Positions 2,510 through 37,525 of a DNA stretch of 64,000 nt are shown here, piece after piece. Made by a program: the position numbers and the translations under genes. The notes under the pieces were generated by a model, which searched no databases, was not told the origin of the DNA, and worked only from the letters and a program-made list of their open reading frames with translations. Origin of the DNA: a virus; IMG/VR virus record IMGVR_UViG_3300032011_003203, positions 1 to 64,000 of that record. One strand, written 5' to 3'. The stretch's first letter is position 1, and every line of letters begins with the position of its first letter.

Positions 2510-2517
2510 AATAATAC

Positions 2518-2547
2518 TTGACTTTAATAGTAAAAAAGCCGTATATT
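2518..2547 (+). promoter_or_regulatory. Early sigma70-type promoter
   Basis: TTGACT-ttaatagtaaaaaagccg-TATATT. Confidence 0.75.
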
Positions 2548-2559
2548 AAGGAAATTAAA

Positions 2560-3366
2560 ATGAATATAGGAATTATAGGAAAAGGATTTGTAGGACATGC
2601 TATCTCTGAGGGTTTCAAGACTCAAGGACATAATATCATTGTACACGATATCCGATTAGAAACACAAATAACTGATGTATTGGATTGTCCAATTGTTTAT
2701 ATATCAGTACCTACACCGAGTGCCGATAATGGTGATTGTGATGTTACAATAGTAGAAAGTGTATTACGAGAGTTATATCATCTAAACTACAAAGGATTTG
2801 TTTGTGTGAAGAGTACAGTCAAACCAGGTTCACTTGGTAGGTGGAATAAGGAATATGGTTCAATACTAAATTTAAGTTTTGTACCAGAGTTTCTTCGTGA
2901 GAAGTGTGCTGTAGAAGATTTTATACATAACAATAATGTATTGGTTATTGGTACGGAAGATGAACGAGTAGAGAAGTGTGTGAGAGATTGCCACGGAGTT
3001 CTACCCACACATACAGTCGTGATGAAACCAATTGAAGCTGAACTAATGAAATACTTCAGTAATAGTTATAAGGCTATGAGAGTTACATTCGCTAATGCCT
3101 TCTATAAACTTTGTCAAGAGGTAGATGCTAATTATGATGTAGTGAAAGATACATTTTTATTTCACGGAGTTGGTGATGGACATTACCTACGAGTGAACAA
3201 AGAGTTTGGTGGATTCGGTGGTACTTGTTTACCAAAGGATACTAAAGGATTGGCTAACTTAGTTGATGAGTTAGGATTAGATATAGAGTTATTCAGAACC
3301 ATTGTAAATGATAATATTAAGTTTACTGCTGGTGATAACAATCAAGAAAATAGGATAGAAATATAG
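2560..3366 (+). CDS. ugd: UDP-glucose/GDP-mannose dehydrogenase (short form)
   Basis: GKGFVG Rossmann, SVPTP, KSTV.PG, PEFLRE, catalytic GFGGTCLPKD; start moved to ATG 2560 because upstream codons are the promoter. Confidence 0.88.
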   Translation: MNIGIIGKGFVGHAISEGFKTQGHNIIVHDIRLETQITDVLDCPIVYISVPTPSADNGDCDVTIVESVLRELYHLNYKGFVCVKSTVKPGSLGRWNKEYGSILNLSFVPEFLREKCAVEDFIHNNNVLVIGTEDERVEKCVRDCHGVLPTHTVVMKPIEAELMKYFSNSYKAMRVTFANAFYKLCQEVDANYDVVKDTFLFHGVGDGHYLRVNKEFGGFGGTCLPKDTKGLANLVDELGLDIELFRTIVNDNIKFTAGDNNQENRIEI

Positions 3367-4857: not shown

Positions 4858-5217
4858 ATGACAAAATTAATTATGGCGATGGTCATATTGGTTATAAGTA
4901 ATATAATGGCTTGGTGGCAATTGAATGCTCAATTTACCACTACATTAAAAGGACATTGGTTTTGGAGTAGTGCTAATTGGATGGCGTTATTTGGAATACC
5001 AATTGGTTGGTTATTTTTCCATTCATCAAGATTATCATATGAACACTTTGGATTTACTTGGAACATTAGAATGATAGGGTTTGGAGTTGGTACTATTATT
5101 TTTGGTATTATGTCCTATTTATTTCTACGAGAGATTCCTACATTAAAAACAATTATATGTATCTTATTAGCAATATCAATTATATTGATTCAAGTAACGA
5201 ATGTCATTGGAGATTAA
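4858..5217 (+). CDS. Four-TM small membrane protein (DMT/SMR-like)
   Basis: Four hydrophobic helices, LFLRE.PT ending typical of DMT. Confidence 0.55.
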   Translation: MTKLIMAMVILVISNIMAWWQLNAQFTTTLKGHWFWSSANWMALFGIPIGWLFFHSSRLSYEHFGFTWNIRMIGFGVGTIIFGIMSYLFLREIPTLKTIICILLAISIILIQVTNVIGD

Positions 5218-5218
5218 A

Positions 5219-5704
5219 ATGAACTTAGAAGATTATATAATAGATGTGCCAGATTGGCCTAAAGAGGGTATCGTGTTTAAAGATATCACACCATTATTAA
5301 AAGATGCGAATGCGTTAAATCATTCCACATTATTAATGAGAGGTTTATTAGCAAACCAAATTAATGCTAGTTATATAGTTGGATGTGAGGCAAGAGGATT
5401 TATATTTGGTTCTTATCTTGCAAAGAGAATGGGATTGGGTTTTATACCCGTAAGAAAAAAAGGTAAACTTCCACCACCAGTAATCAGTAGAGAATATGAA
5501 TTAGAATATGGTACTGATACATTAGAGATTAAACCTGGTGTGGGTAAAGTTATTATTGTGGATGATGTATATGCCACAGGTGGTACTTCAAGTGCTACAA
5601 GAGAATTGTGTGAGGAAGCTGGTTATGATGTTATAGATGAAGTCTATCTTATCAATCTATCTTTCTTAAACAAAGATAAAGTTAAATCAGTTATAACATA
5701 TTAA
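5219..5704 (+). CDS. apt: Adenine phosphoribosyltransferase
   Basis: PDWPKEGIVFKDITP, EARGF, RKKGKLP, YELEYG, PRPP motif VDDVYATGGT. Confidence 0.93.
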   Translation: MNLEDYIIDVPDWPKEGIVFKDITPLLKDANALNHSTLLMRGLLANQINASYIVGCEARGFIFGSYLAKRMGLGFIPVRKKGKLPPPVISREYELEYGTDTLEIKPGVGKVIIVDDVYATGGTSSATRELCEEAGYDVIDEVYLINLSFLNKDKVKSVITY

Positions 5705-5717
5705 AGGAGATTATATT

Positions 5718-5915
5718 ATGGCAAGACTATCAGACTTATTTGATACGATTCAAGAACAATATTTTGAGTTTGAATCTAATCATTTAGAATTTGTGGAAAA
5801 GGGCAACAAATCAGCAGAGGGAAGAGCCCGTAAAGCAATTGGAGAGGTTAAGAAGTTGGTTACTGAATATCGTAAAGAATCAGTACAGGCTTGTAAATCT
5901 AACAATTACAAATAA
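5718..5915 (+). CDS. Histone H1/Hc1-like small DNA-binding protein
   Basis: KGNKSAEGRARKA..E.KKL...YRKES resembles the FCB-group Hc1-like family. Confidence 0.7.
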   Translation: MARLSDLFDTIQEQYFEFESNHLEFVEKGNKSAEGRARKAIGEVKKLVTEYRKESVQACKSNNYK

Positions 5916-6015
5916 GGAGTTACAAAATGGTATTATTATTTAAACTATTGCATGTGCTAACATTTTTAGGTGTTGGTTATTTAGTGTATAAAGAAAGAAA
6001 CTAAAAGGAGATTGA

Positions 6016-6996
6016 GTGATTAGAACAGCAGAGTTTGTATCACCAAAACATCCTGATAAGATATGCGATAGAATATCCGATAGGATATTAGATTACTGTC
6101 TTACTGAAGATAGAGATGCCCGAGTAGCCGTAGAAACAATGGGTGGACACGGGCATATCTATGTTAATGGTGAAGTTACAATTGATTCAGATAAAGAAAT
6201 TCCTATACCACATTTAGTAGATGAGGTGTTAGGTGAACCAGAGATTTACGATGTAACACATACCACATCAGTTCACTTGGTGAAACAATCACCAGAGATT
6301 GGTAGAGGTGTTGATGTTGGTGGAGCAGGTGACCAAGGTATTATGGTTGGATATGCTTGTAATGAAAATGATGAGTATGTACCAGAAGAATATAGATTAT
6401 CAAGAGGTCTATGTAGACACCTTTATAATAGATTTCCGTATGATGGTAAAACACAAATAACAATAGGTGAAGATAAGAAATTAACTATTGTTGCTTCATT
6501 TCAAAATACAAACCAAATTGTATTACGCGGAAAAATTAATGAATGGTTAAAAAGTGAACCTTATGATTTAAGAGCACTACATTGTAATCCAGCAGGAGAT
6601 TGGGAACAAGGTGGTTTCGATGCAGATGCAGGATTGACTGGTAGGAAATTAGTCGTGGATAATTATGGGCCACGAGTTCCAATCGGTGGTGGTGCATATA
6701 GTGGTAAAGACCCAAGTAAGGTTGATAGAAGTGCAGCATATATGGCAAGATATATTGCGGTAAAAGAAATGGAACGAAAAGAATTGGATGAGTGTTGGGT
6801 TAATTTAAGTTATGCTATTGGTGAGAAAGAACCATTACAGGCAACTTGTTTTAATAGATATGGGAGTTGGGGAATACCATCTCACTACCCAATATATCCA
6901 AATGAGATTATAGAATTTTTAGATTTAAAGAAACCAATATATTACAAAACATCAGAATGGGGAGCATATGGTAATGGATTCAAATGGGATAGATAA
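6016..6996 (+). CDS. metK: S-adenosylmethionine synthetase
   Basis: HPDKICDRISD, QSPEI, GAGDQG, DGKTQ, DAGLTGRK, GGGAYSGKDPSKVDRSAAY. Confidence 0.95.
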   Translation: MIRTAEFVSPKHPDKICDRISDRILDYCLTEDRDARVAVETMGGHGHIYVNGEVTIDSDKEIPIPHLVDEVLGEPEIYDVTHTTSVHLVKQSPEIGRGVDVGGAGDQGIMVGYACNENDEYVPEEYRLSRGLCRHLYNRFPYDGKTQITIGEDKKLTIVASFQNTNQIVLRGKINEWLKSEPYDLRALHCNPAGDWEQGGFDADAGLTGRKLVVDNYGPRVPIGGGAYSGKDPSKVDRSAAYMARYIAVKEMERKELDECWVNLSYAIGEKEPLQATCFNRYGSWGIPSHYPIYPNEIIEFLDLKKPIYYKTSEWGAYGNGFKWDR

Positions 6997-7570
6997 AAAG
7001 AAGATACTTATAGTTTGTGCACTTGAAGTAGAAACACAAGGTCAGTTAGATGATTACGATGTTATCTATACAGGAGTTGGTAAGGTTAATGCAACTTATA
7101 AGTTAACAACACACTTTGGAAAGTATGGTTCACACATACCTTATGATTTAGTAATCAATTATGGAACTGCAGGTTCTCGTAAAATCAAAAAGAAAACATT
7201 AGTTGATTGTACCAAGTTTGTGCAGAGAGATATGGATGTAACTGGTCTTGGATTTATGAGAGGTGAAACACCATTTGAAAATGATGTTCCATTGATGTTA
7301 GATTTTGGTATTACTGAACATAACCCAATTGGAAGAAGAGCAACTTGTGGTAGTGGTGATTCATTCGTGGAAGATAGAACACAATACTATGGTGAAGTGG
7401 TGGATATGGAAGCATATGCATTAGCAAAGGTTTGTTATCTGAGAGATATACCATTCGTATCATTTAAATATATTACTGATGGTGCAGATGAACAAGCACA
7501 CGAGGATTGGGAAGCAAACTTAGCACAAGGTATTATAGAATTTAAGGAACAAATTTTAAGTAAGGTGTAA
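6968..7570 (+). CDS. mtnN: 5'-methylthioadenosine/SAH nucleosidase
   Basis: TGVGKVNA, INYGTAG, SGDSF, DMEAYA, KYITDGAD. Confidence 0.85.
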   Translation: MVMDSNGIDKKKILIVCALEVETQGQLDDYDVIYTGVGKVNATYKLTTHFGKYGSHIPYDLVINYGTAGSRKIKKKTLVDCTKFVQRDMDVTGLGFMRGETPFENDVPLMLDFGITEHNPIGRRATCGSGDSFVEDRTQYYGEVVDMEAYALAKVCYLRDIPFVSFKYITDGADEQAHEDWEANLAQGIIEFKEQILSKV

Positions 7571-7572
7571 GT

Positions 7573-9000
7573 TTGAAAGCCTATGTTATAACCATTGAGG
7601 GTAATCAATATAGTGAAGAGAGTGCACAGAGAACTCTTAAATCAGCAATTGATGCTGGATTAGATGCAGAAATATATTATGGGGTTGATAAGTATAATTC
7701 AGTAAATGAATTAAAAACTCAAAACTTAACACTTAATGATTTAAATCAAAAATGGTTAAAGTATAGTTACTTAGAACCAGCAATCGGTTGTTTCCTATCT
7801 CATTATTTCTTATGGTTAAAATGTGTACAGAGTGGTGAGCGATTTGTTATACTCGAACACGATGTAGAATTTACAGATAAGTTTGTAGATTCAAAACCAG
7901 AACCAGGTTCATTTAGTATTATGAATATTGGTAAACCACTATGGGATAATAAAACTAATGAACATCTTGGTGGTGCACACGCATACATAATCAATGCTAT
8001 CCAAGCAAAGAAATTAATTAAATCTGCAAAGGATGATGGTATCGTACCAACAGATGTTTTTATCAATCGTAATATTGTTTCAATAGAAGATGCTAAAACA
8101 TATACTTGTTTTCAACGACAAGAGTTTACCACAATACAAAGAGATATCCAAAGTGATAGTAGATATTCTGATGATTGTGTTCCAGCAAAAAAAGCTTGGA
8201 ATGAGGGTAAGGGTAAGGTTATGGTTTTTCTAGCTGATGAAACAATGTATGATAAGATACCACCTTTAATTTCGAATGCAAAGATAGATGGATTGTGGGA
8301 TGGGGATTTTATTGTAGTAACACCAGTAGGTTCAGATACAACATATTTAGAAGAACGAAAGATAGAATATTACATACCACCAGAACTTCACGATACACCA
8401 ATACATTTTAATAAGATGTTTATGTTCAGTACATTCTTTGAAGAGTGGGATTGGATATTGTATGTGGATTTGGATGTATGGTTTTTAAATCCAATAACAT
8501 TAAGTAGTCTTAAAAGTAAAGATAAGTTATTTGCAAAACGAGATAACCTACCTTTTATAAAACAATTTAAGAATAAAGATTTAACTTCAGAACAATCAAG
8601 GTGTAATAAATATTTAAGTAATCCCCTAAACTATGATGAGGCAACATTTCAAACTTGTTTTCTATATTGGCATTCAGATTTAAACAAACAAGTATTTAAA
8701 GAACTTGAATCTACATACTTTTACTTTTATGTTTATCTTGAAATGGCAAGAGCAAATCATTGGGAACAAGCAATATTCAGTATAGTATTTAATAGACGAT
8801 GGAATATTATAGGAGAGGATTGGATACAAACAAAAGTATTAGATGAAGTGGATTGGGATTTATCTTTGTTAGATAAAGGTTATTCTGATGGTGGAGATTA
8901 TGAAGATATTACTTGTGTACATTTTACAAGTTTCTTTCCGCCTTGGGAAAAAAAGAATAAACGATTTTATAATGAATGGTTAAGTTATAATGAGATATAA
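7573..9000 (+). CDS. GT25 + GT8-like glycosyltransferase fusion
   Basis: N-half GCFLSH..LW, ILEHD, GAHAYII (GT25); C-half LYVDLD, EQAIF, CVHF..PW (GT8). Confidence 0.75.
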   Translation: MKAYVITIEGNQYSEESAQRTLKSAIDAGLDAEIYYGVDKYNSVNELKTQNLTLNDLNQKWLKYSYLEPAIGCFLSHYFLWLKCVQSGERFVILEHDVEFTDKFVDSKPEPGSFSIMNIGKPLWDNKTNEHLGGAHAYIINAIQAKKLIKSAKDDGIVPTDVFINRNIVSIEDAKTYTCFQRQEFTTIQRDIQSDSRYSDDCVPAKKAWNEGKGKVMVFLADETMYDKIPPLISNAKIDGLWDGDFIVVTPVGSDTTYLEERKIEYYIPPELHDTPIHFNKMFMFSTFFEEWDWILYVDLDVWFLNPITLSSLKSKDKLFAKRDNLPFIKQFKNKDLTSEQSRCNKYLSNPLNYDEATFQTCFLYWHSDLNKQVFKELESTYFYFYVYLEMARANHWEQAIFSIVFNRRWNIIGEDWIQTKVLDEVDWDLSLLDKGYSDGGDYEDITCVHFTSFFPPWEKKNKRFYNEWLSYNEI

Positions 9001-9787
9001 AAAATTTATATTTGATACTGAATGTGTTTTAGATTTAAAAGATGATTTATTAATATTTCCATTTCAAGAGGAGTACATTGAATATCAATCTTGGGCAATG
9101 AATAATCCAAACGATTTCAATCGTGTGGTAAATAAGTTTGCAAGTAAAGCACAATGGCAAGGTTTATTAGAAGAAGTAAGAATGGTTCGAGGTAATCAAT
9201 ATCAAAGAAAATTATTTCATCCTGATGGAACACTATATGTAATATCAGAAGTTAGAAAACTTCCAAATCAAGAATATCAATCACACGGATTACAAACATC
9301 ATATTACGAATCGGGTAATGTTAAATCAATAGAAAACTTTAGACACGGAGATAAGGCAGGAGAATATAAACAATATACTGATGATGATACTAAGAATATA
9401 ATTGTAACTGGCCAGTATGATTACAATTGTAAAGTTGGTGAGTGGGAATATAATAATGAAAAAACTAATCGTCCTTTAGCAAAAGAACTATATAAAGCAG
9501 GTGTATTAATAGAACGAGTTGAAGTTGATACTAAAGGTAAAAGTGTTGTAGAGAAGAATTATAATAGTAATGGTGAGTTGCATGGAATATATAGGGATTC
9601 ACATAATAATGGTGAGTTAAGAGCTCGTGGTATTATGAGAAATGGTAAGATGGATGGTATGTGGTTTTTTTATTATATTGATGGTAGAGAAAACTATAAG
9701 ATAAAATTTGATAATGGTAAACCACTTGAGAAGTTTGTTTATTATAATAATGATGGTAGTGTTCAATGGAGTAAGGATATACTATGA
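8990..9787 (+). CDS. MORN-variant (YwqK-like) repeat protein
   Basis: Repeated HG...YY..G...G.Y..G.W.Y units. Confidence 0.75.
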   Translation: MRYKKFIFDTECVLDLKDDLLIFPFQEEYIEYQSWAMNNPNDFNRVVNKFASKAQWQGLLEEVRMVRGNQYQRKLFHPDGTLYVISEVRKLPNQEYQSHGLQTSYYESGNVKSIENFRHGDKAGEYKQYTDDDTKNIIVTGQYDYNCKVGEWEYNNEKTNRPLAKELYKAGVLIERVEVDTKGKSVVEKNYNSNGELHGIYRDSHNNGELRARGIMRNGKMDGMWFFYYIDGRENYKIKFDNGKPLEKFVYYNNDGSVQWSKDIL

Positions 9788-10680
9788 TTAGTTTTATTTT
9801 AAATTTTTGTTCAATAGATAAGGGTAAACATATTCACATACCAGGCACTTGGGGTTCTAACAATTATTATAAAATGGTATCCACTACATTAAAAGTTATT
9901 AAGAATATACAACAACATAAGTTTGAACACGAGATTATATTAATAGATAATTCACATAACTGGCCTAATATTACTTTATCAAATGTAAGAGTTGTAAAGG
10001 GATTTCAATCAATGACAACTAAAGAATTGGAAAATAACAAGTGGTTTAATTTACATAATGATACAGCAAAATTAAGTAGTATGACTTTAGAAAATGATAC
10101 GATGTGGGCATCATTAGGTTTTTATTTGGGTACTAAAGAAGCTAAGTATGATACGATTGTATTACAACATAATGATTTATTCTATTATAATTTTGATGCA
10201 ATTGAGGATATGATTTATGATATGGAAGCAGATGATTTATCATATGTTTCAGTAGATAATAAAAAGGTAACTTTGTTATCATATGTTATACATCAAGAGT
10301 TATTCAATAAATTAATTAAGGGTGATATAGAATTTTCACCAGAACACGGCGGGATGGTTAAGACAAAAGATTTAGGATTTAGTGATGCATATTTCTTTTT
10401 GTGTAAAAAAGATTTCTTTCGTGATTATGATATCGATTGGATATATGGCGATAGTAATCACGGAGCCACAATACATTGTTTAGAAAAGGGTTATAAGTAT
10501 TTACACCTTGGTCCATACTATGATAATCCAAATTATGATACACAAGATACTGGTGAGCATAATATCTATTACTATGATGGACAAAAGTTTGCTTCACATC
10601 TAAAGGGTGGATTCTCTGAAAATAAAATATCAACAAATACTAATAGTACTTTCTATGAGGCATTAGATGAAACTATCTGA
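9784..10680 (+). CDS. GT2-like glycosyltransferase
   Basis: MISFI, EIILIDNS, G.KEAKYD.IV..HND. Confidence 0.6.
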   Translation: MISFILNFCSIDKGKHIHIPGTWGSNNYYKMVSTTLKVIKNIQQHKFEHEIILIDNSHNWPNITLSNVRVVKGFQSMTTKELENNKWFNLHNDTAKLSSMTLENDTMWASLGFYLGTKEAKYDTIVLQHNDLFYYNFDAIEDMIYDMEADDLSYVSVDNKKVTLLSYVIHQELFNKLIKGDIEFSPEHGGMVKTKDLGFSDAYFFLCKKDFFRDYDIDWIYGDSNHGATIHCLEKGYKYLHLGPYYDNPNYDTQDTGEHNIYYYDGQKFASHLKGGFSENKISTNTNSTFYEALDETI

Positions 10681-11215
10681 TATAGTAAAGGACAAATTAA
10701 AAACTCTAACTGAAGATTTATATTGGGAAAATAGAGATACTAATTATGGTGTACTTGCATCTATACATTTAGATAAGGATGGTGGGGTTACCGATTTCAA
10801 TACAAATATAGATGTTGATAATTCCAACACAATAGATAATATATTTAAGTACTTAACTAAACACGAATATAAGAGATTAGTTATATTTACAAGAACAGAT
10901 AAAGAGGTTGGTAATAATTACAATGTACCAAACACAGATACATTAAAGGATATAGAGCAAAGATGTACTGATAATATTTTGAACTATTATAACTTTATAC
11001 AGAATCCTTATCCAGATGGAATACCTAAGTTCAAATTAGATTCTGATAGTTTTGGATTGAGATTTGGATTTGATAATACTTGTGAGATAGATAAGATAGC
11101 AGTAAACAAATCATATAGATATGGTGTTCCTATGGTTGATAGTGAAGAACCTACCAAATATAATATAATAATAATGTGTACTAAAATGGGTGTGGAGATA
11201 TTAGATGAAAGATGA
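10667..11215 (+). CDS. Hypothetical protein
   Basis: Overlapping ORF in operon. Confidence 0.55.
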   Translation: MKLSDIVKDKLKTLTEDLYWENRDTNYGVLASIHLDKDGGVTDFNTNIDVDNSNTIDNIFKYLTKHEYKRLVIFTRTDKEVGNNYNVPNTDTLKDIEQRCTDNILNYYNFIQNPYPDGIPKFKLDSDSFGLRFGFDNTCEIDKIAVNKSYRYGVPMVDSEEPTKYNIIIMCTKMGVEILDER

Positions 11216-11411
11216 TTTCGTACATTTAAAAGTAAATGGTAACTTGATACAAATTGTTTGTCATAATGAAACACAGCAACAAAAGGTTATAAAGAATATG
11301 ACAGAACCAGGTAAATGTGTATTCGAGGGATACGAACATTGGGAAGATGAAACAGTCATACTTACATTTAGAGTATTAGATTATATTGATATGAAACCAT
11401 CGCAAAACTAA
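11205..11411 (+). CDS. Hypothetical protein
   Basis: Overlapping ORF with RBS. Confidence 0.5.
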   Translation: MKDDFVHLKVNGNLIQIVCHNETQQQKVIKNMTEPGKCVFEGYEHWEDETVILTFRVLDYIDMKPSQN

Positions 11412-11968
11412 TGTTTATAAATCATACACACAAGTTTATCTTTATTCACATACCAAAGAATGGTGGTACGAGTATTCGTAATTCATTTGATATTAATGGG
11501 TATGATAAAAAGGTAGTAAGAAAGAAGTACCCACACGATGGTACAATGAAGATACGAGATTATTGTGGAGATGAAGTATGGAATACATTTTATAAGTTTG
11601 CAGTTGTTCGTAATCCATATGATAGATTAGTTAGTTATTATCACTTTCATAAATCACCACAATACAGATATCCAGCAAGAGCACAAGAGTTAAGTTTTAA
11701 AGACTGGGTTATGAATGGATTAGATGACAATATAAAGAAAACACAATTCGGATACTTAGCAATGCAACCAGATTACACTATTAGATTTGAAAAACTACAA
11801 GAGGGTTTTGATGATGTATGTAATGGTATTGGTATTGAACCATATGAATTACCACACTATAATAAATCAGAACACGAACCATTCGAAAGTTATTATGATG
11901 ATGAATTAAAGGATATTGTATATGGAATGTTTTTAGTTGATTTTAAAAGATGGGACTACGCTCGCTAG
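11411..11968 (+). CDS. Sulfotransferase family 2 protein
   Basis: FIHIPKNGGTS (PAPS 5'-PSB), VRNPYDRLVSYY (3'-PB), IRFEKL. Confidence 0.88.
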   Translation: MFINHTHKFIFIHIPKNGGTSIRNSFDINGYDKKVVRKKYPHDGTMKIRDYCGDEVWNTFYKFAVVRNPYDRLVSYYHFHKSPQYRYPARAQELSFKDWVMNGLDDNIKKTQFGYLAMQPDYTIRFEKLQEGFDDVCNGIGIEPYELPHYNKSEHEPFESYYDDELKDIVYGMFLVDFKRWDYAR

Positions 11969-28796: not shown

Positions 28797-29576
28797 ATGA
28801 AAAAAATACAAATAGAATATTATATAACACTTAATTGTAATTTAGATTGTATTGCGTGTTCTTCATTTTCACCATTGGTAAAAAAGAAAACACCACATAT
28901 AGATTTTGAATATATTAAAAAAGATTTTAAAAAATTATATAAAGTAACAGAAGATGGAGAGAGAATATCAGTATTAGTTTTGATGGGTGGAGAACCATTA
29001 TTGCATCCAAACATAAATCAGATTATTCAATACTTTAGTGAGTTGGGAGTTTCATTGAGAATAGTTACAAACGGAATATTAATACCAGCAATGGATGATG
29101 AGTTCTTTAAGTTGGTTCGTAAATATTCAGTAGAAGTGATTGTATCTATTTATAAAGTATTAAAATATGAAAAGGTATTTACAACATTAGATAGTAACAA
29201 TATACCTTATAGATTATATGACCAAAAAGGAACTTTTGGACATAAGTATCTACATAATGAAAAGAGAACTCATATAATGGATTGTTGGTATAGAGATAAT
29301 GTTCATATATTAAAAGATAATAAAATATATACTTGTTCAGAAACTGCATTCTTTAATATATTTGATGCAAAATTTAAAGGATTACATAAGTTAAAAATAA
29401 CTAACGATGATTATATAGATTTGGATGATGTAGAAACTTTTGAAGAGTTGATGAAGTTAAGAAGTACATCTGTGCCACCACTATGTTACAATTGTGATGG
29501 TAGTGAAAAAAGCAAAACAGAATGGGTTCGTTCAGATGGTTCAATAGAAGAATGGTTAAATATAAAAAGTACTTGA
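28797..29576 (+). CDS. Radical SAM protein
   Basis: CNLDCIAC, MGGEPLLHP, VTNG, C-terminal Cys (twitch/SPASM-like). Confidence 0.88.
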   Translation: MKKIQIEYYITLNCNLDCIACSSFSPLVKKKTPHIDFEYIKKDFKKLYKVTEDGERISVLVLMGGEPLLHPNINQIIQYFSELGVSLRIVTNGILIPAMDDEFFKLVRKYSVEVIVSIYKVLKYEKVFTTLDSNNIPYRLYDQKGTFGHKYLHNEKRTHIMDCWYRDNVHILKDNKIYTCSETAFFNIFDAKFKGLHKLKITNDDYIDLDDVETFEELMKLRSTSVPPLCYNCDGSEKSKTEWVRSDGSIEEWLNIKST

Positions 29577-30254: not shown

Positions 30255-31874
30255 ATGAAAAAATGGTTTTATGAGAGAAGTAAATTCTCTGAGTTTAAAT
30301 CGAATACGACTTATCATAAGTTGTTAAAGATGTCAGTAGAAGAGTTTAATGATTGGGCACGATTACTTAGACAAGAAGTTACTACTCAATGGGATGAATA
30401 CGGAACACCACCCGTAATCGGTAAAGATGAAGATGGTATCATTAAGAAATTCAAAAAACTAAAAGACAATCCTTGTGATTATTTAATTGAAGATAATACT
30501 GGTGATGATGAATCACTTGGTATAATTAAGAACTTCAATAAAGATGCGAGTAGTGTTAATCAGTTCTTTCCAACAATGTTAAAAACAAAAATCAGTATTG
30601 GTGCATCAGCCGATAATGGTTTATCTATCTATGACCACTTTGGTGACCCAGAGTTAGAAGATAAGTTTGTTCACATTATGCGTAGAGCAGTAAAGAAAGA
30701 TTCTATGTATAGTTGGAGTAGAAGTATCGTAACTAAGAAAGATGAGAATCCTTTTTGGAATGGTGAGACTGGTAAAGAATTTATTAAGAATGTTTATGAT
30801 GGTAAAGTTTCTATTGGTAAATATTCAGATACAAGATTTGTACTTGCAAGAGTAAAGAAAAGTACAGTCGGTAATTATGGTACTATGAATGAAGAGTTTA
30901 AAGGACACGGAAATGTTTATTTAACTGCAGAGGAAGTACAAGATTGTAAGGATAGTGGTTATTTAAATGATACACAATTAAGTAACATACCAGATATAGT
31001 TTCATCTGAAACAAGTAAGACTGGTAAAGTAACTGAGTTCTTATATCTAATTAGACACTATGATAAAACTATTGGAATCTTTCCAAAGATATTACAAGTG
31101 TTTAGATTAGCGTGTGGACAACCTGCAGTAAACTTTCCACCACTAACAGCAAAACTTTTGTATGAAAAATTTACAGACCATATAGATAATCAAGAACAAA
31201 CATTTCATATCTATGACCCATCAAGTGGTTGGGGTGGTAGAATTTTAGGAGCAATGAGTTCTCGTAAGAATATACACTATGTTGGTACAGACCCTAATCC
31301 AGATAATTTAGGTAGATATCAAGCAGTTGCTGATTTCTATAATAATAATTGTGTTGATGATTTCTCTGAAAACTTTAATAAGTTTTTTGATGTAGAAAAA
31401 CAATCAAACACATATGAAGTATTTAGTGATGGTAGTGAATTAATATCTAACAATCCAGCATTTCAAAAATATAAAGGTAAGTTGGATGTAGTATTTACAT
31501 CACCACCATATTTTAATCGTGAACAATATTCTCAAGATGAGAACCAGTCGTTCAAGGCCTATGGTGAGTATCAAGACTGGAGAGATAACTTCTTAGAACC
31601 CACATTACGAACCGCTTACGAGTATCTAAAGAATGATAGATATATCCTTTGGAACATCGCAAGTATCAAAATAGGTGCAAATACTTATTATGATTTAGAG
31701 GGTGATAGTAGAAAAATCTTAGAAGAACTTGGGTGTGAATATAAAGGTAAATTAAAAATGTTAATGACAAGAATGATTGGGTTAGACCCATCTAAGACTG
31801 GAATTTTAAATTCAGTACAACACGATAATAATGTGTATAAGTTTGAACCAATATTTGTGTACTATAAAAGATGA
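30255..31874 (+). CDS. SAM-dependent DNA amino-methyltransferase-like protein
   Basis: Motif I YDPSSGWGGR, GTDPN, motif IV FTSPPYF..E.Y. Confidence 0.8.
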   Translation: MKKWFYERSKFSEFKSNTTYHKLLKMSVEEFNDWARLLRQEVTTQWDEYGTPPVIGKDEDGIIKKFKKLKDNPCDYLIEDNTGDDESLGIIKNFNKDASSVNQFFPTMLKTKISIGASADNGLSIYDHFGDPELEDKFVHIMRRAVKKDSMYSWSRSIVTKKDENPFWNGETGKEFIKNVYDGKVSIGKYSDTRFVLARVKKSTVGNYGTMNEEFKGHGNVYLTAEEVQDCKDSGYLNDTQLSNIPDIVSSETSKTGKVTEFLYLIRHYDKTIGIFPKILQVFRLACGQPAVNFPPLTAKLLYEKFTDHIDNQEQTFHIYDPSSGWGGRILGAMSSRKNIHYVGTDPNPDNLGRYQAVADFYNNNCVDDFSENFNKFFDVEKQSNTYEVFSDGSELISNNPAFQKYKGKLDVVFTSPPYFNREQYSQDENQSFKAYGEYQDWRDNFLEPTLRTAYEYLKNDRYILWNIASIKIGANTYYDLEGDSRKILEELGCEYKGKLKMLMTRMIGLDPSKTGILNSVQHDNNVYKFEPIFVYYKR

Positions 31875-32557
31875 TAGTAATTAAAGCAAACTCACCAACA
31901 GATGCTTGGATAAAATCACACGAGTATCTTTTAGAAAATGGTAACAAAGATGTGATGAATGAAAGTATTAATATGTCGGTAGAGATAGAAGATAACTTTG
32001 ATACAGAACCTAAGTTCGATGGATTGTTTAGAGAAATCTTTGGTGATGATAGAATAGATTATGCAAGTTCAGTTACATTTGTTAAACCAACAGAACATCC
32101 TTTTATGGATGAATTACAATTCCAACAAAATGATACTAAAGTAAAGTGGAACAAAACTTATTGGGGTAGAATGATTAATTGGGATAATAGTTTCAATCAA
32201 ATAGAACAAGTTATAAAAAGATTAAAAGAACATAAGAATAGTAAAACAATTGCAATGAGTATCTACGACCCGAAATCAGATGGTAGAAAAACAATGAGTG
32301 GAATGCCTTGTTTATTATCAATAGATTTAAAACCAAGAAAAGATGGATTGTATTTAACAGCATTCTTTCGTAGTATGAGAATTAGTAAGAGTGGTTATGC
32401 TGATTGGGTTGCGTTGTGTGAGATGGCAAAGTTCTTATGTGAACAAGCAGATTTAAAATTAAAAAGAGTTACAACAATTGGTGGTTCAGTTCATCTTGGT
32501 GATATGAATAACGAAAAGAAAAATGTCAAGGAGTTACTTAGTGTGTGGAATAGTTAG
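31871..32557 (+). CDS. Divergent thymidylate synthase/dCMP hydroxymethylase-family protein
   Basis: YWGR...NQIEQVI..L, catalytic MPC, FRS motif with Asp at the N177-equivalent position, SVHL. Confidence 0.8.
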   Translation: MIVIKANSPTDAWIKSHEYLLENGNKDVMNESINMSVEIEDNFDTEPKFDGLFREIFGDDRIDYASSVTFVKPTEHPFMDELQFQQNDTKVKWNKTYWGRMINWDNSFNQIEQVIKRLKEHKNSKTIAMSIYDPKSDGRKTMSGMPCLLSIDLKPRKDGLYLTAFFRSMRISKSGYADWVALCEMAKFLCEQADLKLKRVTTIGGSVHLGDMNNEKKNVKELLSVWNS

Positions 32558-34046
32558 TACGGTCAATCATAGTGATGAAGTTGTACACGATATGTTACTT
32601 CAAATTGAACACAGAGGTAGGGATAATCGAGAGATTTTTGAGAGTGGTAATGTTCACCTGGGCCACAATAGATTAAGTATAAATGATGTGAGTGAAGCAG
32701 GAAATCAGCCATTTGTTTGGAATGATTATGCACTTGTAGTTAATGGTGAGATATGGAACTATCCACAATTAAGAAAAGAATATGAAGAACGAGGTTATAC
32801 ATTTTTTAGTAATAGTGATTCAGAAATAATTTTATATCTATACAAAGAAAATGAATTAAAAAGATTAGAGGGTATGTTTAGTTTTGTATTGCATGATACC
32901 TTAACTAATGAGTTAGTTGTATCGAGAGATTGGGTTGGTAAGATTCCATTATACATTTATAACAATGATACAAATATTTTAATTGCATCTGAAATGAAAT
33001 CAATATTAAAAATATTACCACAAGCAGAATGTAAGTTTGTTCCAAAAAATTCAGTAGTTAGAATAAATACAATTACTGGTTCAGTACATATTGATAAAGA
33101 TTACTATTTTACTTGGACACCATTTGAGGATAAAGAGTTTGACCAAGATGAGGTTAACAAAAAAACTTATGAGTTGTTAGATACTGCAGTAGAGAAAAGA
33201 TTATTAAGTGATGTTAAGGTTGCAACTTGTTTAAGTGGTGGTATTGATTCAAGTGTAATTACTTATTTGTTAAGTAAGAAAGTACCTGATATCGTATCTT
33301 ATACAGTCAAGTTCGATGAGGATTCAAGAGATTTAATGTTTGCAAGAATGGTTGCAGAACATATCAATGTACCATTGGTTGAGGTTGAGATACCAAGAGA
33401 CCCAGAAGAATTAAAAAGAAAATTTTTAGAAACAATAAAGGTTATAGAATATCCATCAACAGTCCAAATGGAAGTTGGTATTCTACAAAGTTATGTTGCC
33501 GAGAAAATGGCAGAGGATGGTGTTAAGGTTGCGTTTAGTGGTGAGGGTTCTGATGAATCGTATGGTTCATATGGTACATTCAGAATGTTCAGTAAGAAAC
33601 CAGATTGGAGTGATGTACGAAAGAAATTATTTGAGAAACAATACTATGGTAATTTACTTCGTGGGAATAATATCTTTATGAATTATGGAACAATAGAATT
33701 AAGATGTCCATTCTTTGATTTAGATTTTTTAGATTACACTACTAACCTTACACAACCAGTATTAGATAATAGTGGAAACCAATGGAAGAAACCACTTGCT
33801 GAAGCATTTCGTGGACACTTACCAGATGAGGTATGTGACCAAGAGAAACGAGCATTTCAAAAAGGAACAAACTTCAAAGAGTATATAGAAGATGTAATTC
33901 TAAATGATACAGATATAAATTTTAAAAATAGAAAAAAACTATTTCATTGTATCGGAGATAACTTTGAAAGAATATTTGGTTTCAAACATAAAGGTATGAG
34001 AGATACTTTATCTGGCACTGAAAATGGATTTGGGAAATGGATATAA
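32541..34046 (+). CDS. Asparagine synthetase B-like glutamine amidotransferase
   Basis: GTG start after AAGGAG gives Ntn MCGI; HRGRD, GHNRLSI, QP, NGEIWN, SDSE, LSGGIDSS, SGEGSDE, R.PF. Confidence 0.9.
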   Translation: MCGIVSTVNHSDEVVHDMLLQIEHRGRDNREIFESGNVHLGHNRLSINDVSEAGNQPFVWNDYALVVNGEIWNYPQLRKEYEERGYTFFSNSDSEIILYLYKENELKRLEGMFSFVLHDTLTNELVVSRDWVGKIPLYIYNNDTNILIASEMKSILKILPQAECKFVPKNSVVRINTITGSVHIDKDYYFTWTPFEDKEFDQDEVNKKTYELLDTAVEKRLLSDVKVATCLSGGIDSSVITYLLSKKVPDIVSYTVKFDEDSRDLMFARMVAEHINVPLVEVEIPRDPEELKRKFLETIKVIEYPSTVQMEVGILQSYVAEKMAEDGVKVAFSGEGSDESYGSYGTFRMFSKKPDWSDVRKKLFEKQYYGNLLRGNNIFMNYGTIELRCPFFDLDFLDYTTNLTQPVLDNSGNQWKKPLAEAFRGHLPDEVCDQEKRAFQKGTNFKEYIEDVILNDTDINFKNRKKLFHCIGDNFERIFGFKHKGMRDTLSGTENGFGKWI

Positions 34047-34882
34047 TACAAACACCAATAGAAACTTATACATTAAATGGTATCGATGTTGATGTCAAGA
34101 GAGATGATTTAGTTGGTGATGGAGTTAACTTTCCACGATGGGCAAAGATAGAGGGTATAAGAAAAATATTAGAGAGTGATGATATTGATAAATCAAAACC
34201 ACTAACTCACTTATCAGTTTATGGAAGTTGGACTGGATGGACATTAAGTAAGTTGTGTAAAGAGTATGGTATAGAATTTATTTCTGCTTATCCAGATACA
34301 CAAAAGTTTCCACAAGTATTGTTAGAACGAGTAGAGGGTAATGGTGGTAAGTTACATCCGATGAGACCTAATATGATGGCGTTTATGCAAAACAAATTAA
34401 ACACACAAGCAAAAGAAAATGGTTGGCAACAATTACCATACGCATTCAATCATCCCGCATACATTAGTTATATGGGGGCAAGAATGAGAGAAGTTTTAAA
34501 AGATAGGGAATATGATAACCTTGTTGTTAGTATTGGTAGTGGTGTTACTGCAAGTGGATTAATAAAAGAATTTTTAGAGTACGGAGATGATTGGTGGAAG
34601 TTAAATAACGAATCAAGAAAAGTTTATTCTATTACGATGAGTGCATTCTCATCAACAAAAAAGATTTTAAATGAGAATCACGCTGGTGATTTGAAAAATA
34701 TAATACTCGAAAAATCACCATATGCATTTGATGATATGATGGATGATTATAAAGTACCATTTGATTGTAATGAATTTTGGGACAAGAAACAATGGTATTG
34801 GTTAGAGGATAATATACAGAAACTTAAAGGGAAAACTTTATTTTGGAACATTGGTGGTTCTTATTTAAATTCAATAAAATAA
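34037..34882 (+). CDS. PLP-dependent fold-type II enzyme (ACC deaminase/D-cysteine desulfhydrase-like)
   Basis: TPI, VKRDD, WAK (PLP Lys), VSIGSGVTASG, LFWNIGG. Confidence 0.75.
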   Translation: MDIIQTPIETYTLNGIDVDVKRDDLVGDGVNFPRWAKIEGIRKILESDDIDKSKPLTHLSVYGSWTGWTLSKLCKEYGIEFISAYPDTQKFPQVLLERVEGNGGKLHPMRPNMMAFMQNKLNTQAKENGWQQLPYAFNHPAYISYMGARMREVLKDREYDNLVVSIGSGVTASGLIKEFLEYGDDWWKLNNESRKVYSITMSAFSSTKKILNENHAGDLKNIILEKSPYAFDDMMDDYKVPFDCNEFWDKKQWYWLEDNIQKLKGKTLFWNIGGSYLNSIK

Positions 34883-34891
34883 AAAAAACAC

Positions 34892-34921
34892 TTGACTTGT
34901 ATAGGCAAAAAGCCTTATATT
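34892..34921 (+). promoter_or_regulatory. Early sigma70-type promoter
   Basis: TTGACT-tgtataggcaaaaagcct-TATATT. Confidence 0.8.
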
Positions 34922-34954
34922 ATGGTCATATTAAATTGGAGATTTAGAAACAAT

Positions 34955-35728
34955 ATGAAAAGTTTATCAGCAGAAAAAATACAAGAGAACTATAAAACTC
35001 TTCGAAATATTATTACGATGACTTTCTCTGGTGAGAGACTAGAGAAATTAAATAAGATGTATGATTATTTTGAAGATAGAATGATGTTAGCACCAGCAAG
35101 TGCAAAAGAACATTATCACAATGCTATGGTGGGTGGATATGTAGAGCATGTTTTACACATTGTAGATTTTTCACAATCAGTAAAAAAGTTGTGGGAAGAA
35201 AAGGGAGCAGACATTAACTTCACGGATGAAGAATTAATCTTTGCTGCATTACATCACGATTTAGGTAAGGTAGGTAATTTAGAACACGATTACTATATAC
35301 CAAATGAATCAGATTGGCATCGTAAGAATCAAGGTAAGATTTATACACATAATCCAGAGTTACCTTATATGACAGTAACAGATAGAGCATTTTATTTATT
35401 ACAACACTTCCAAATACCTTTAACAGAAAATGAATATATGGGATTGATGTTAACAGATGGAATGTATGAAGATGCAAATAAAAAATATTTAATGACCTTC
35501 TTACCAGAGACTGGATTGAGAAGTCATATATCACGAATACTACACCAAGCAGATATGATGGCAACATTTATCGAATCGGATGAGTGGAAGCGTGGAGATA
35601 AAAAAGAGACTAAACGAGTTCTTAAATCAGTAGGTAATATCAAAGATGCCGTTAAGTCAGAAGTAGAAACTAAACTCACGGGTGAATCACCAAAAGATTT
35701 ATTTAATGAGTTATTTGGAGATAAGTAA
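34955..35728 (+). CDS. HD-domain phosphohydrolase
   Basis: APAS..HYH.A..GG..EH, HHDLGK, HQAD. Confidence 0.85.
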   Translation: MKSLSAEKIQENYKTLRNIITMTFSGERLEKLNKMYDYFEDRMMLAPASAKEHYHNAMVGGYVEHVLHIVDFSQSVKKLWEEKGADINFTDEELIFAALHHDLGKVGNLEHDYYIPNESDWHRKNQGKIYTHNPELPYMTVTDRAFYLLQHFQIPLTENEYMGLMLTDGMYEDANKKYLMTFLPETGLRSHISRILHQADMMATFIESDEWKRGDKKETKRVLKSVGNIKDAVKSEVETKLTGESPKDLFNELFGDK

Positions 35729-35988: not shown

Positions 35989-36710
35989 TGCCAAGAAAAG
36001 CAAAAAAGGGTTCACCACGATATTACTTTCATCAAGGAACTGAAGATGCAATCATTCGCTTGAATAAAGAAACTCGTGCTCATATGAAAGAACGAATTTA
36101 TAATGAACATATTCGTACACCATTTGAGAAACTTGCTGAGAATATAATTCATACATTTAAGTTTTATTACTTTGATGTTCCAAGTGAGGATGTTAAACAC
36201 GAAGTGGTTTCATTCTTATATATGAATATTCACAAATTTGCTGAGGGTAAGGGAAAGGCATTTAGTTATTTCAGTATTGTTGCTAAGAACTATTTGATTC
36301 TACACAACAACAATAATTACAAGAAGATGAAACAACACGATAGTGAGGATGTGATGGATTATAAAAGAGACCCAGTCACAGAACTTCGTGGTAAAGAATC
36401 TCGTAGTATGAAGATGGAGTACATCGAACAACTTGCTGATTATTGGAGAAATAATTTAACTACAGTCTTTAAACGAAAGAAAGATTTGGATGTTGCTAAT
36501 TCGGTAGTAGAGTTAATTGATATGAGACATAATATCGATAACTTTAATAAGAAAGCATTATACATTCTTATTCGTGAAATGACTGGTTCTAATACACAAC
36601 ACATAACTCGTGTAATTAATGTGATGAAGAAACATCATAACAATTTACACAAGGCATATTTAACTACTGGCTCGGTTGATACTAAACGAACTGGTAGTTG
36701 GTTTGAGTGA
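35988..36710 (+). CDS. Late-transcription sigma factor (T4 gp55-like)
   Basis: YYF..., LAENI, KF...KGKAFSYFSIVAKNY region-2-like motif. Confidence 0.72.
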   Translation: MPRKAKKGSPRYYFHQGTEDAIIRLNKETRAHMKERIYNEHIRTPFEKLAENIIHTFKFYYFDVPSEDVKHEVVSFLYMNIHKFAEGKGKAFSYFSIVAKNYLILHNNNNYKKMKQHDSEDVMDYKRDPVTELRGKESRSMKMEYIEQLADYWRNNLTTVFKRKKDLDVANSVVELIDMRHNIDNFNKKALYILIREMTGSNTQHITRVINVMKKHHNNLHKAYLTTGSVDTKRTGSWFE

Positions 36711-37525
36711 AGTTATATCAACAAGATTGGAATTATCGGAAAAACAATACCGATAAATATCCAGAGTTAAAAGCTATTACATCATATCCAAATTCTTTTT
36801 GGTTAACAAGGAATCCTAAGAAACCAAAACTTGGTAGAAAGTTAACTCATAGTATTCGAAGATTGTGTAGAAGAGCACATCCAGCTCAACCAGTTATAGT
36901 TTTATATGCTATACCTGGTAGAGATATGGGTGGACATTCAAAGGGTGGTTTAACAGAAAAACAATATCTAAAATATGTTGGTGATATTGCTTTAGGTATT
37001 GGAAATTTTAAACCAATAATTATTTTTGAACCAGATGCAATTCCACATATGAGAAAGATGAATTTCTTTCAACGAACTAATCGTACAAGGTTGATTAAAA
37101 AAGCTTTAGGTTTATTATCAAATACCAATGCACAAGTATATCTTGATATTGGACATCCAAATTGGTTAAAGAAAACAGATGCTGCAACTTATCTTAATTT
37201 ATTTAACAAAGGTGATATAAAGGGTTTTTCTATTAATGTGAGTAATTTCGTAACAACAGATAAGTGTTTACGATATGGTGATAAAATATCTGAAGAAACA
37301 AATTTAAATTATGTTATAGATACATCAAGAAATGGTAACGAGGTTTGGGAAACATTCAATCCACAAGATATGAAACTTGGTGAAGAACCTACTATCAGAA
37401 CTAATTCAAGAAAGTGTGATGCTTATCTTTGGATTAAAACACCAGGTGAAAGTGATGGTGCTGTAAATGGTTGGCCTAAAGCTGGTAGATTTAATGCTAA
37501 AAAAACCTTATCTCTTATAAATTAA
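36707..37525 (+). CDS. Glycoside hydrolase family 6
   Basis: LYAIPGRD, FEPD, YLDIGH..W, GFSINVSNF, VIDTSRNG, DAYLWIKTPGESDG. Confidence 0.88.
   Translation: MKLYQQDWNYRKNNTDKYPELKAITSYPNSFWLTRNPKKPKLGRKLTHSIRRLCRRAHPAQPVIVLYAIPGRDMGGHSKGGLTEKQYLKYVGDIALGIGNFKPIIIFEPDAIPHMRKMNFFQRTNRTRLIKKALGLLSNTNAQVYLDIGHPNWLKKTDAATYLNLFNKGDIKGFSINVSNFVTTDKCLRYGDKISEETNLNYVIDTSRNGNEVWETFNPQDMKLGEEPTIRTNSRKCDAYLWIKTPGESDGAVNGWPKAGRFNAKKTLSLIN

Follow-up and report, generated by a model that had tools for sequence, protein, structure and literature searches.

A phage gene block with a divergent thymidylate synthase homologue as a probable undescribed module for cytosine hypermodification

Introduction

DNA hypermodification is a main route by which phages escape restriction and CRISPR, and enzymes used to label DNA or in epigenetic sequencing have come from it. 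Here we ask what modified base, if any, would be produced by four overlapping genes of IMGVR_UViG_3300032011_003203, an 81-kb IMG/VR viral contig (G000; CheckV completeness estimate 46%), the first 64 kb of which (64,000 nucleotides) make up the window analysed. The genes encode an amino-methyltransferase-fold protein (MT539), a homologue of thymidylate synthase (TS; TS228), an asparagine-synthetase-type glutamine amidotransferase (AsnB507) and a fold-type II pyridoxal phosphate (PLP) enzyme (PLP281). An original prediction, made from the letters of the window, had read them as an uncharacterised pathway for cytosine hypermodification, and the present analysis followed up that reading.

Our answer is that the block is an undescribed, probably site-specific phage module for cytosine hypermodification, to which we give a probability of about 55%. 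That it is a DNA cytosine-modification module distinct from the published ones is probable, and the chances that all four genes serve a single pathway are evenly balanced. The module unites parts of two recently solved pathways, a CmoY-type ligase and a gp52-type decarboxylase, with an unusual TS clade, and it is common, being present in about 80 viral contigs including those of jumbo phages. The original prediction knew of no characterised pathway with this combination, and none turned up in the literature searched, where no paper described a methyltransferase-fold, TS, AsnB and PLP gene set. Lee et al. (2021; PMC8989533) noted metagenomic contigs with unexplained 'amidoligase and glutaminotransferase' genes, beside 5-HMUDK and aGPT-Pplase, and the alpha-dapT paper (PMC13458397) contains no enzymes comparable to those of the module. 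The description of the module as uncharacterised needs one correction: no described pathway matches it, but two of its proteins have characterised relatives that had not been named, namely the M6 gp52/ViI gp226 enzymes for PLP281 and the glutamine-type CmoY ligases for AsnB507.

Results

TS228 resembles enzymes of cytosine nucleotides

Searches with Pfam and PHROGs profiles upheld the four predicted folds, and the motifs quoted for them were present in the translations: YDPSSGWGGR (residues 320-329) and TSPPYF (415-420) in MT539, and GMPC (Cys147) and FFRSMRISKSGYAD (Asp178) in TS228. Pfam PF00303 (Thymidylat_synt) matched TS228 at 33.6 bits (cut-off 24.3). Its best NCBIfam match was the methanogen-type TS model TIGR03283, at 78.6 bits far under the cut-off of 174.6, and TS228 fell under every NCBIfam TS equivalog cut-off. 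When 24 members of the TS228 family (40-82% identity) were aligned, the residues Cys147, Arg167-Ser168, Tyr97, His208 and Asp178 were invariant. The family was also aligned by MAFFT with E. coli ThyA, T4 gp42, RB69 gp48, M6 gp58 and PhiF1 TS. The catalytic cysteine, in a Pro-Cys motif, is therefore kept as had been claimed, and the aspartate at the E. coli Asn177 site, previously placed by eye, was reproduced in the MAFFT alignment and shared by all 24 members. The same column holds Asp in T4 gp42 and RB69 gp48, and Asn in the three dUMP enzymes ThyA, M6 gp58 and PhiF1 TS. The further claim that the conserved Asp169 had become Arg was true of TS228 but not of its relatives, which have Ala or Val, so it is the loss of Asp, without a fixed replacement, that is conserved.

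Lee et al. (2026; PMC13326640) described three diagnostic positions in this superfamily, of which N177D indicates deoxycytidine monophosphate (dCMP) as substrate, L143D/E a hydroxymethyl product, and D169N the flavin-dependent 5-hydroxy-dCMP synthases. Only N177D is present in the TS228 family. Position 143 is Gly (Lys in some relatives), and column 169, which is Asn in RB69 gp48, is Arg, Ala or Val in TS228 and its relatives, so that the flavin signature is missing. The folate signature is missing from the alignment as well, with loss of Asp169, Trp80, Trp83 and the C-terminal closing tail, the chain ending about 20 residues past His208. Other differences, in E. coli numbering, are His147 to Leu, Arg126 to Lys and the lack of Arg21. 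The basic residues R54, R61, R100, K154, R156 and K173 are invariant in the family. Since both the folate and the flavin signature are lost and many basic residues are invariant, we infer an anionic, carboxyl-bearing donor for TS228.

The AlphaFold2 (AF2) model of TS228 had a mean predicted local distance difference test score (pLDDT) of 92.5. Foldseek matched it to many TS structures at a probability of 1.00, the best matches being the cytidine monophosphate (CMP) hydroxymethylase MilA and the dCMP hydroxylase of HY126, with a template modelling score (TM) of about 0.7. The view of the TS homologue as cytosine-type and non-canonical was thus borne out by Asp177 and by its best structural and sequence matches, which are enzymes of cytosine nucleotides. 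Like the characterised cytosine TS homologues (T4 gp42; MilA; RB69 gp48, DLP3 gp80 and HY126 AfhB; PMC13326640; PDB 5b6d, 9iqc, 9iqu), TS228 has the TS fold, the catalytic Cys, the equivalents of Arg166-Ser167, and Asp177. It differs from them in a sequence identity of only 14-18% and in having no acidic residue at 143, no Asp or Asn at 169, no Trp80, Trp83 or Arg21, and no tail. The methanogen-type enzymes, represented by ORF59 of the Methanobacterium virus PhiF1, gave the best profile match and are likewise short (about 210-230 amino acids), but PhiF1 TS retains Asn177 and Asp169, neither of which is found in TS228. Homology identifies TS228 as a TS-fold enzyme whose active-site cysteine would make C5 of a cytosine nucleotide nucleophilic.

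Among cultured phages, PhiF1 TS was the sole match to TS228 (22% identity). The TS alignment was also compared with 185k species genomes and gave no cellular relative, a scan that used a single peptide pattern, so that absence from cells is not proven. As far as these scans reach, the TS228 family is a virus-only clade. A complete jumbo phage of 375 kb carries both ThyX and a TS228-family gene, which argues that the family is not there for the making of thymidine monophosphate (dTMP).

The TS, AsnB and PLP genes are kept together in diverse phages

Two IMG/VR scans gave 79 loci, some of them on contigs of 150-375 kb, and the order TS, AsnB, PLP was kept in nearly all of them over a TS identity of 36-93%. 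The genes thus co-occur in very diverse phages, in support of the original prediction, which a lack of co-occurrence elsewhere would have refuted. Where a full AsnB gene was missing, a PP-loop-only version lay beside the TS gene (with no informative relative among cultured phages), and where the PLP gene was missing, a large radical S-adenosylmethionine (SAM) gene of cluster c9 usually adjoined. Between 1 and 7 short paralogues of the methyltransferase (MTase) domain surrounded the trio, and a full-length MT539 orthologue (70-74% identical) was often found 4-6 kb downstream. In distant phages the trio was located among genes for DnaB, RecA, PolB, ribonucleotide reductase and the clamp loader. 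Judged from these loci, the conserved core is TS plus AsnB or PP-loop, with PLP in most cases, and the MTase-fold gene is linked to it in a variable position.

One locus (L089:9001-11133) contained an in-frame TS-AsnB fusion of 710 amino acids, in which TS residues 1-214 were joined to AsnB from about residue 21; this could be natural or the result of an assembly deletion. The radical-SAM proteins of cluster c9 (L036, L065, L083, L085, L086, L092 and L093; for example L036:4966-6309) are 450-800 amino acids long and gave weak matches to B12-dependent radical-SAM and AprD4-like models. They may be an alternative tailoring enzyme, mostly in loci without PLP; as a counterpart of M6 gp53 they were rejected, having no similarity to it. 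Two loci have mobile-element-like insertions within the module. A 1.4-kb insert (L007:2450-3871) separates the AsnB and PLP genes in one, and a GIY-YIG/NUMOD3 homing-endonuclease open reading frame (ORF) reads in frame into the TS gene in another (L031:8233-9000). In the complete jumbo phage (L032/G004; 375,691 bp), 7 PF01555 genes occur in about 13 kb around the TS/PP-loop/PLP trio, at roughly 282-295 kb.

AsnB507 is related to amide ligases acting on DNA

Pfam matched the third ORF to Asn_synthase (146.8 bits, E = 1.7e-42), GATase_7 (115.6 bits) and GATase_6, and TIGR01536 scored 292.6 against a cut-off of 267.1. The amidotransferase had been described as having an intact N-terminal nucleophile, Cys1. 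This is correct once the start is moved to GTG 32541, 6 nt after AAGGAG, which gives fMet-Cys-Gly-Ile-Val; from the upstream ATG the cysteine would be residue 8. The consensus of the AsnB family alignment begins MCGI, and the PP-loop LSGGIDSS is invariant. The position of AAGGAG inside the end of the TS gene indicates translational coupling of TS228 and AsnB507. All four ORFs were confirmed to be on the plus strand with overlapping stops and starts, as had been reported; the overlaps are 4 nt, 17 nt (35 nt if the third ORF begins at ATG 32523) and 10 nt.

The closest phage relative of AsnB507 was gp124 of Streptomyces phage TurkishDelight (31% identity over 92% of the length). By profile searches its neighbours are a C5-cytosine MTase (gp123; TIGR00675 above cut-off) and a CmoA-like protein (gp125; TIGR00740 best, below cut-off). 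This arrangement recalls Synechococcus phage S-B43 (Yang et al., Nat Commun 2025; PMC12783734), in which CmoX sets a carboxymethyl group on cytosine C5 at GC sites. The carboxymethylcytosine is then amidated in DNA by CmoY, which is homologous to asparagine synthetase, and the products are 5-carboxymethylcytosine and its glycine amide; a second CmoY cluster with a glutamine-hydrolysing domain was predicted there to use ammonia. The TurkishDelight cluster is of the CmoX/CmoY(Gln)/CmoA type in a cultured phage, and could serve as a model for the glutamine-type ligase. In its record (NC_073473, locus L002, gp121-125), these three genes are annotated only as methyltransferase, glutamine amidotransferase domain and methyltransferase, and two ParB-domain proteins adjoin. 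The TurkishDelight MTases were considered as homologues of MT539 and are not homologous to it.

By homology, AsnB507 is a CmoY-like enzyme, predicted to hydrolyse glutamine and to convert a carboxyl group to an amide through its ATP-dependent PP-loop domain; a tblastn search with AsnB507 did not pick up the CmoY of S-B43. As the AsnB clade adjoins a C5-MTase in TurkishDelight and a TS-fold enzyme here, it pairs with a Cys-dependent activator of cytosine C5 in two unrelated contexts. The likeness to the CmoA/CmoX/CmoY system therefore lies in an ATP-dependent, asparagine-synthetase-type enzyme next to such an activator, and also in the sites concerned, since the modified cytosine of that system is in a GC motif and the restriction-site footprint described below is of GC and GAC. 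However, neither CmoA nor a C5-MTase (CmoX) was found in G000 or in G001, an independent relative that is 95% complete (loci L099-L107), by TIGR00740, PF00145 or phmmer. Only 11 kb of G001 DNA could be aligned with G000, at 71% identity. CmoX has the C5-MTase fold, unlike TS228, which has the TS fold and would not be expected to use carboxy-SAM, and the module here adds a PLP enzyme and an amino-MTase-fold protein.

PLP281 belongs to a family of decarboxylases of base-attached amino acids

The Pfam PALP model matched PLP281 at 17.7 bits, below its cut-off of 35. phrog_7093 matched it over the full length (residues 3-273, E = 5.9e-25), tblastn found relatives in 65 M6/YuA-like phages at 28% identity and 97% coverage, and phmmer against M6 gp52 gave E = 9e-24. 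The Schiff-base Lys37 is invariant in the family and aligns with Lys36 of M6 gp52. Experiments on M6 gp52 and ViI gp226 established that their substrates are amino acids borne by thymine in DNA, which they decarboxylate (PMC8989533). Homology thus places PLP281 in the gp52/gp226 family, the only PLP family known for decarboxylating base-attached amino-acid side chains in DNA, and a similar activity is predicted for it.

The thymidine hypermodification systems of M6 and ViI (PMC5889632, PMC8989533) share more with the module than this enzyme and its lysine: there as here, a TS homologue for a modified pyrimidine and an HD-domain protein are encoded nearby, and the logic by which an amino-acid-derived side chain is trimmed on DNA is the same as that proposed below. 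The differences are that M6 gp58 has Asn177 where TS228 has Asp177 and no folate signature, and that M6 and ViI encode 5-HMUDK, aGPT-Pplase and a gp53-type radical-SAM isomerase in place of the AsnB-type amidotransferase and amino-MTase-fold protein. Among the ORFs of G000 and G001 there was no homologue of M6 gp51, gp53, gp54 or gp59, of T4 gp56, of beta-gt or of the RB69 kinase (for M6 gp51 and gp54, no phmmer match at E <= 1). On these searches the starter enzymes of the known pathways (CmoA, CmoX, 5-HMUDK and aGPT-Pplase) appear to be absent from both genomes. The chemical handle should then be installed in some other way, for which TS228 is the sole candidate.

The HD-domain gene follows the PLP gene in all close relatives, and only in that clade, and is upstream of the module in L065. 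Its product may shape the nucleotide pool. It was also considered as a counterpart of M6 gp59, to which it has no detectable similarity.

Nearly all surviving CATG, CTAG and ACGT sites have a cytosine after G or GA

Several palindromes are strongly depleted in G000, with observed over expected counts of 0/359 for GATC, 2/108 for ACGT, 1/25 for CCGG, 0/15 for GCGC, 45/295 for CATG and 18/154 for CTAG. All surviving CATG (45 of 45), CTAG (18 of 18), ACGT and CCGG sites have a cytosine in 5'-GC or 5'-GAC context on at least one strand, for which the binomial tails were 2e-22 for CATG (per-site chance 0.33) and 3e-11 for CTAG. The rule breaks if the G is exchanged for any other base, or the A of GAC for another. 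It was reproduced in G001, where GATC was absent (641 expected) and the sites in GC/GAC context numbered 112 of 113 for CATG, 60 of 60 for CTAG and 7 of 7 for ACGT, with tails of 3e-51 and 2e-32 for CATG and CTAG. GATC, which can never place its cytosine in either context, is wholly absent from both genomes. Among closer relatives, the CTAG rule held at 100% in 13 loci. These patterns suggest that protection falls on cytosines in GC and GAC contexts, a concrete prediction of where the modified base is located. Because the footprint is context-specific, at least the protective step should take place on DNA at G(A)C, and the extreme avoidance of unprotected sites argues against a blanket replacement of cytosine.

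Depletion of longer sites was also seen in G000 (GAATTC 0/21, GGTACC 0/18 and CTTAAG 0/10, observed over expected). In the 18.7-kb locus of the jumbo phage L032/G004, ACGT occurs 0 times against 28 expected and GATC is not avoided; the repertoire of protected sites may be different there.

The candidate for sequence selectivity is MT539. PF01555 (N6_N4_Mtase) matched its C-terminal half (about residues 290-539) at 28.1 bits with a cut-off of 26.7, motif I (DPSSGWGG) and motif IV (SPPY) are invariant in its family, and the best structural matches to its AF2 model (pLDDT 74.8) were the amino-MTases TrmN, Trm11 and Trm14 (Z 13.6). Residues 1-290 had no assignable fold or family, the best Atlas value being 0.83, to unnamed viral clusters, and the VIA and Foldseek matches being confined to the MTase half. 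MT539 and its orthologue gave the sole PF01555 match in G000 and G001, respectively, neither of which had a match to PF00145 or PF02086, and orthologues 70-96% identical were found in many contigs. MT539 is hence a candidate G(A)C-specific DNA-modifying enzyme. The footprint is consistent with transfer of a group, putatively methyl, to DNA by MT539 at a defined sequence, and the link between the footprint and the MT539 gene is correlative.

Discussion

A proposed pathway and the points that weigh against it

Homology fixes four predicted types of reaction for the module: a cysteine activates C5 of cytosine, a carboxyl group is amidated at the expense of glutamine, an alpha-amino acid undergoes PLP chemistry, and a group is transferred to an amino nitrogen. 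In the pathway that we propose, TS228 would join cytosine C5 to a carbon unit bearing a carboxyl (with or without an amino group) and derived neither from folate nor from flavin, and would thereby be the installer of the handle, the role that CmoX and the hydroxymethylases have elsewhere. AsnB507, translationally coupled to TS228, would then amidate the carboxyl with glutamine-derived ammonia. PLP281 would decarboxylate the alpha-amino-acid part of the side chain or, alternatively, make the donor, MT539 would give sequence selectivity and N-alkylation at 5'-GC/5'-GAC, and the HD protein would shape the nucleotide pool. The outcome would be a cytosine bearing an amide, an amine or both, which could block host restriction enzymes at GC/GAC sites. 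It is plausible, at somewhat less than even odds, that the core of the chemistry consists in placing a carboxyl handle on C5 and then amidating it.

A more specific version is distinctly tentative: the TS fold would have been rewired to form a C-C bond between cytosine C5 and a carboxyl or amino-acid donor obtained from neither folate nor flavin. The donor could be an alpha-keto acid or aldehydo acid, the corresponding imine, or the aminocarboxypropyl group carried by SAM. TS228 may use DNA as its substrate or work in concert with it, at G(A)C sites that the MTase-fold protein selects, and amidation and decarboxylation of the side chain would follow at the level of DNA. If this holds, the TS superfamily would have gained a type of reaction new to it, and marine phages would widely possess a natural DNA base not described before. 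As none of the known starting enzymes was found, the base and the TS-family reaction to which the module leads should both be new.

Several observations count against these proposals. No single side chain obviously suits both a carboxyl amidase and an alpha-decarboxylase; a side chain with two carboxyls, alternative products, or a PLP enzyme that makes the donor are possibilities here. PLP281 shares only 28% identity with gp52, and beta-elimination or beta-replacement is the commoner chemistry among fold-type II enzymes. The TS-AsnB fusion of L089, a single case, has no amidotransferase cysteine. The characterised TS homologues use free nucleotides and so modify every C, but the footprint is context-specific, and it follows that either a later step at the DNA level sets the specificity or TS228 acts in an unusual way. 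The footprint itself cannot separate C from its paired G, and MT539 alone, as an ordinary N4-methylcytosine (m4C) methylase, could produce it. GCGC is strongly avoided in G000 and G001 though both of its cytosines are in GC context. In L015, where the trio is kept and the MT539 orthologue is only 49% identical, there is neither avoidance nor rule, and the rule weakens to an enrichment (70% versus 47%) in phages further removed, whose orthologue is 73% identical.

Alternative explanations

The strongest alternative, which has an appreciable though minor chance of being right, is that two systems lie side by side. MT539 would be an orphan N4-cytosine (or N6-adenine) methylase of short G(A)C specificity that makes the footprint, and TS228, AsnB507 and PLP281, possibly with the HD protein, would replace deoxycytidine genome-wide through the nucleotide pool, in the manner of T4. 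It would be in keeping with the action of every characterised TS homologue on mononucleotides, with the normal role of SPPY amino-MTases, which just methylate, with the less fixed position of the full-length MT539 orthologue, 4-6 kb from the trio in many phages, and with an HD phosphohydrolase after the trio that resembles the pool-shaping enzymes of other replacement systems. Genome-wide replacement of cytosine, however, usually removes the need for site avoidance, which is extreme here, and the T4, RB69 and M6 control loci had little avoidance. The 95%-complete G001 gave no homologue of dCTPase, dNMP kinase or dCMP deaminase, those relatives of AsnB507 and PLP281 that have been characterised use DNA and not nucleotides as substrate, and the MTase-domain paralogues are packed tightly around the trio, with up to 7 in 13 kb in the jumbo phage.

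It is improbable that the pathway ends, like that of MilA in mildiomycin biosynthesis, in a free nucleotide or nucleoside with a modified cytosine, which would serve as a small-molecule effector or inhibitor and never enter DNA. The closest solved structure to TS228 is indeed that of MilA, a CMP hydroxymethylase from an antibiotic pathway, and AsnB-type and PLP enzymes are common tailoring enzymes of natural products (NCBIfam relatives include lasso-peptide and macrolactam cyclases). Yet the TS family was not found in cellular genomes by the single-pattern scan and sits in phage modules of replication and nucleotide metabolism, the nearest relatives of the PLP and AsnB enzymes are DNA-modifying phage enzymes, and the module is linked to DNA MTase-fold genes. 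TS228 keeps His208, which in TS contacts the 3'-OH of deoxyribose, a feature that does not separate this explanation from modification of DNA.

That the genes are ordinary auxiliary metabolic genes that happen to adjoin, namely a methanogen-type TS making dTMP, an asparagine synthetase, a serine/threonine dehydratase and a routine DNA methylase, is very unlikely. It would explain why the methanogen-type model is the best NCBIfam match of TS228, why AsnB507 passes the TIGR01536 cut-off, and the label 'threonine dehydratase' borne by gp52 relatives in database records. However, the TS228 score is 79 bits against a cut-off of 175 bits, the aspartate at the dUMP/dCMP site is invariant where the methanogen-type TS of PhiF1 has Asn and retains Asp169, and one complete genome encodes ThyX alongside a member of the family. 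Across a TS identity of 36-93%, the genes keep their order and their translational coupling, and the dehydratase label was contradicted by experiment for gp52 and gp226 (PMC8989533).

Thymidine hypermodification of the M6/ViI type from 5-hydroxymethyldeoxyuridine can be set aside almost entirely: a gp52/gp226 homologue with a TS homologue and an HD protein nearby would suit it, but TS228 has Asp at 177 where M6 gp58 has Asn, searches of G000 and G001 gave no homologue of M6 gp59, 5-HMUDK, aGPT-Pplase2 or the radical-SAM isomerase, and the footprint concerns C:G pairs.

Genomic setting and other genes of the window

The features of the module are listed in Table 1. Nearly all genes of the contig are on the plus strand. 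A blastn search with the whole operon gave no match among cultured phages, and the same phage was found in marine metagenomes of at least 15 studies.

Table 1. Coordinates of the module genes and associated features in the window.
Feature	Position	Strand	Basis
ORF1 (MT539), amino-methyltransferase-fold protein, 539 aa	30255..31874	+	Pfam PF01555
ORF2 (TS228), thymidylate-synthase-fold enzyme, 228 aa	31871..32557	+	Pfam PF00303
AAGGAG ribosome-binding site of the AsnB gene, inside the 3' end of the TS gene	32529..32534	+	sequence reading
ORF3 (AsnB507, corrected start), class-II Ntn-Cys glutamine amidotransferase with PP-loop asparagine-synthetase domain	32541..34046	+	Pfam
ORF4 (PLP281), fold-type II PLP enzyme, 281 aa	34037..34882	+	phrog_7093
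HD-domain phosphohydrolase (HD278), accessory	34892..35728	+	phrog_28876 and phrog_5889, E about 5e-13

A gene upstream of the module (28797-29576) encodes a radical-SAM protein of 259 amino acids with weak viperin-like and SPASM-maturase-like matches (NF038283 at 49.5 bits, cut-off 180). It was considered as part of the core and rejected, being absent from all relatives examined. A phosphoribosyltransferase (apt-like), MetK and a gene resembling methylthioadenosine/S-adenosylhomocysteine nucleosidase (mtnN-like) follow one another at 5201-7570. These are real genes by Pfam and NCBIfam, but as core members they were likewise rejected, having no orthologues in G001; the genes that would fit an aminocarboxypropyl transfer with release of methylthioadenosine, an option raised in the original prediction, are thus absent from that 95%-complete genome, and the option gained no support.

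A NodU/TobZ-type carbamoyltransferase, a UDP-glucose dehydrogenase-like gene, a family-25 glycosyltransferase and a sulfotransferase are encoded at 1010-3366 and 7573-11968, in what looks like a set of auxiliary metabolic genes for modifying cell-surface glycans. The carbamoyltransferase family also includes a known 5-hydroxymethylcytosine (5hmC) carbamoyltransferase. The protein at 1010-2509 is probably not a counterpart of this enzyme, described from MetaGPA, as it is NodU-like, lies among genes of sugar metabolism and is absent from G001. Downstream of the module, at 36707-37525, a protein with a glycosyl hydrolase family 6 (cellulase-type) domain (Pfam E = 1.7e-43) is conserved in close relatives.

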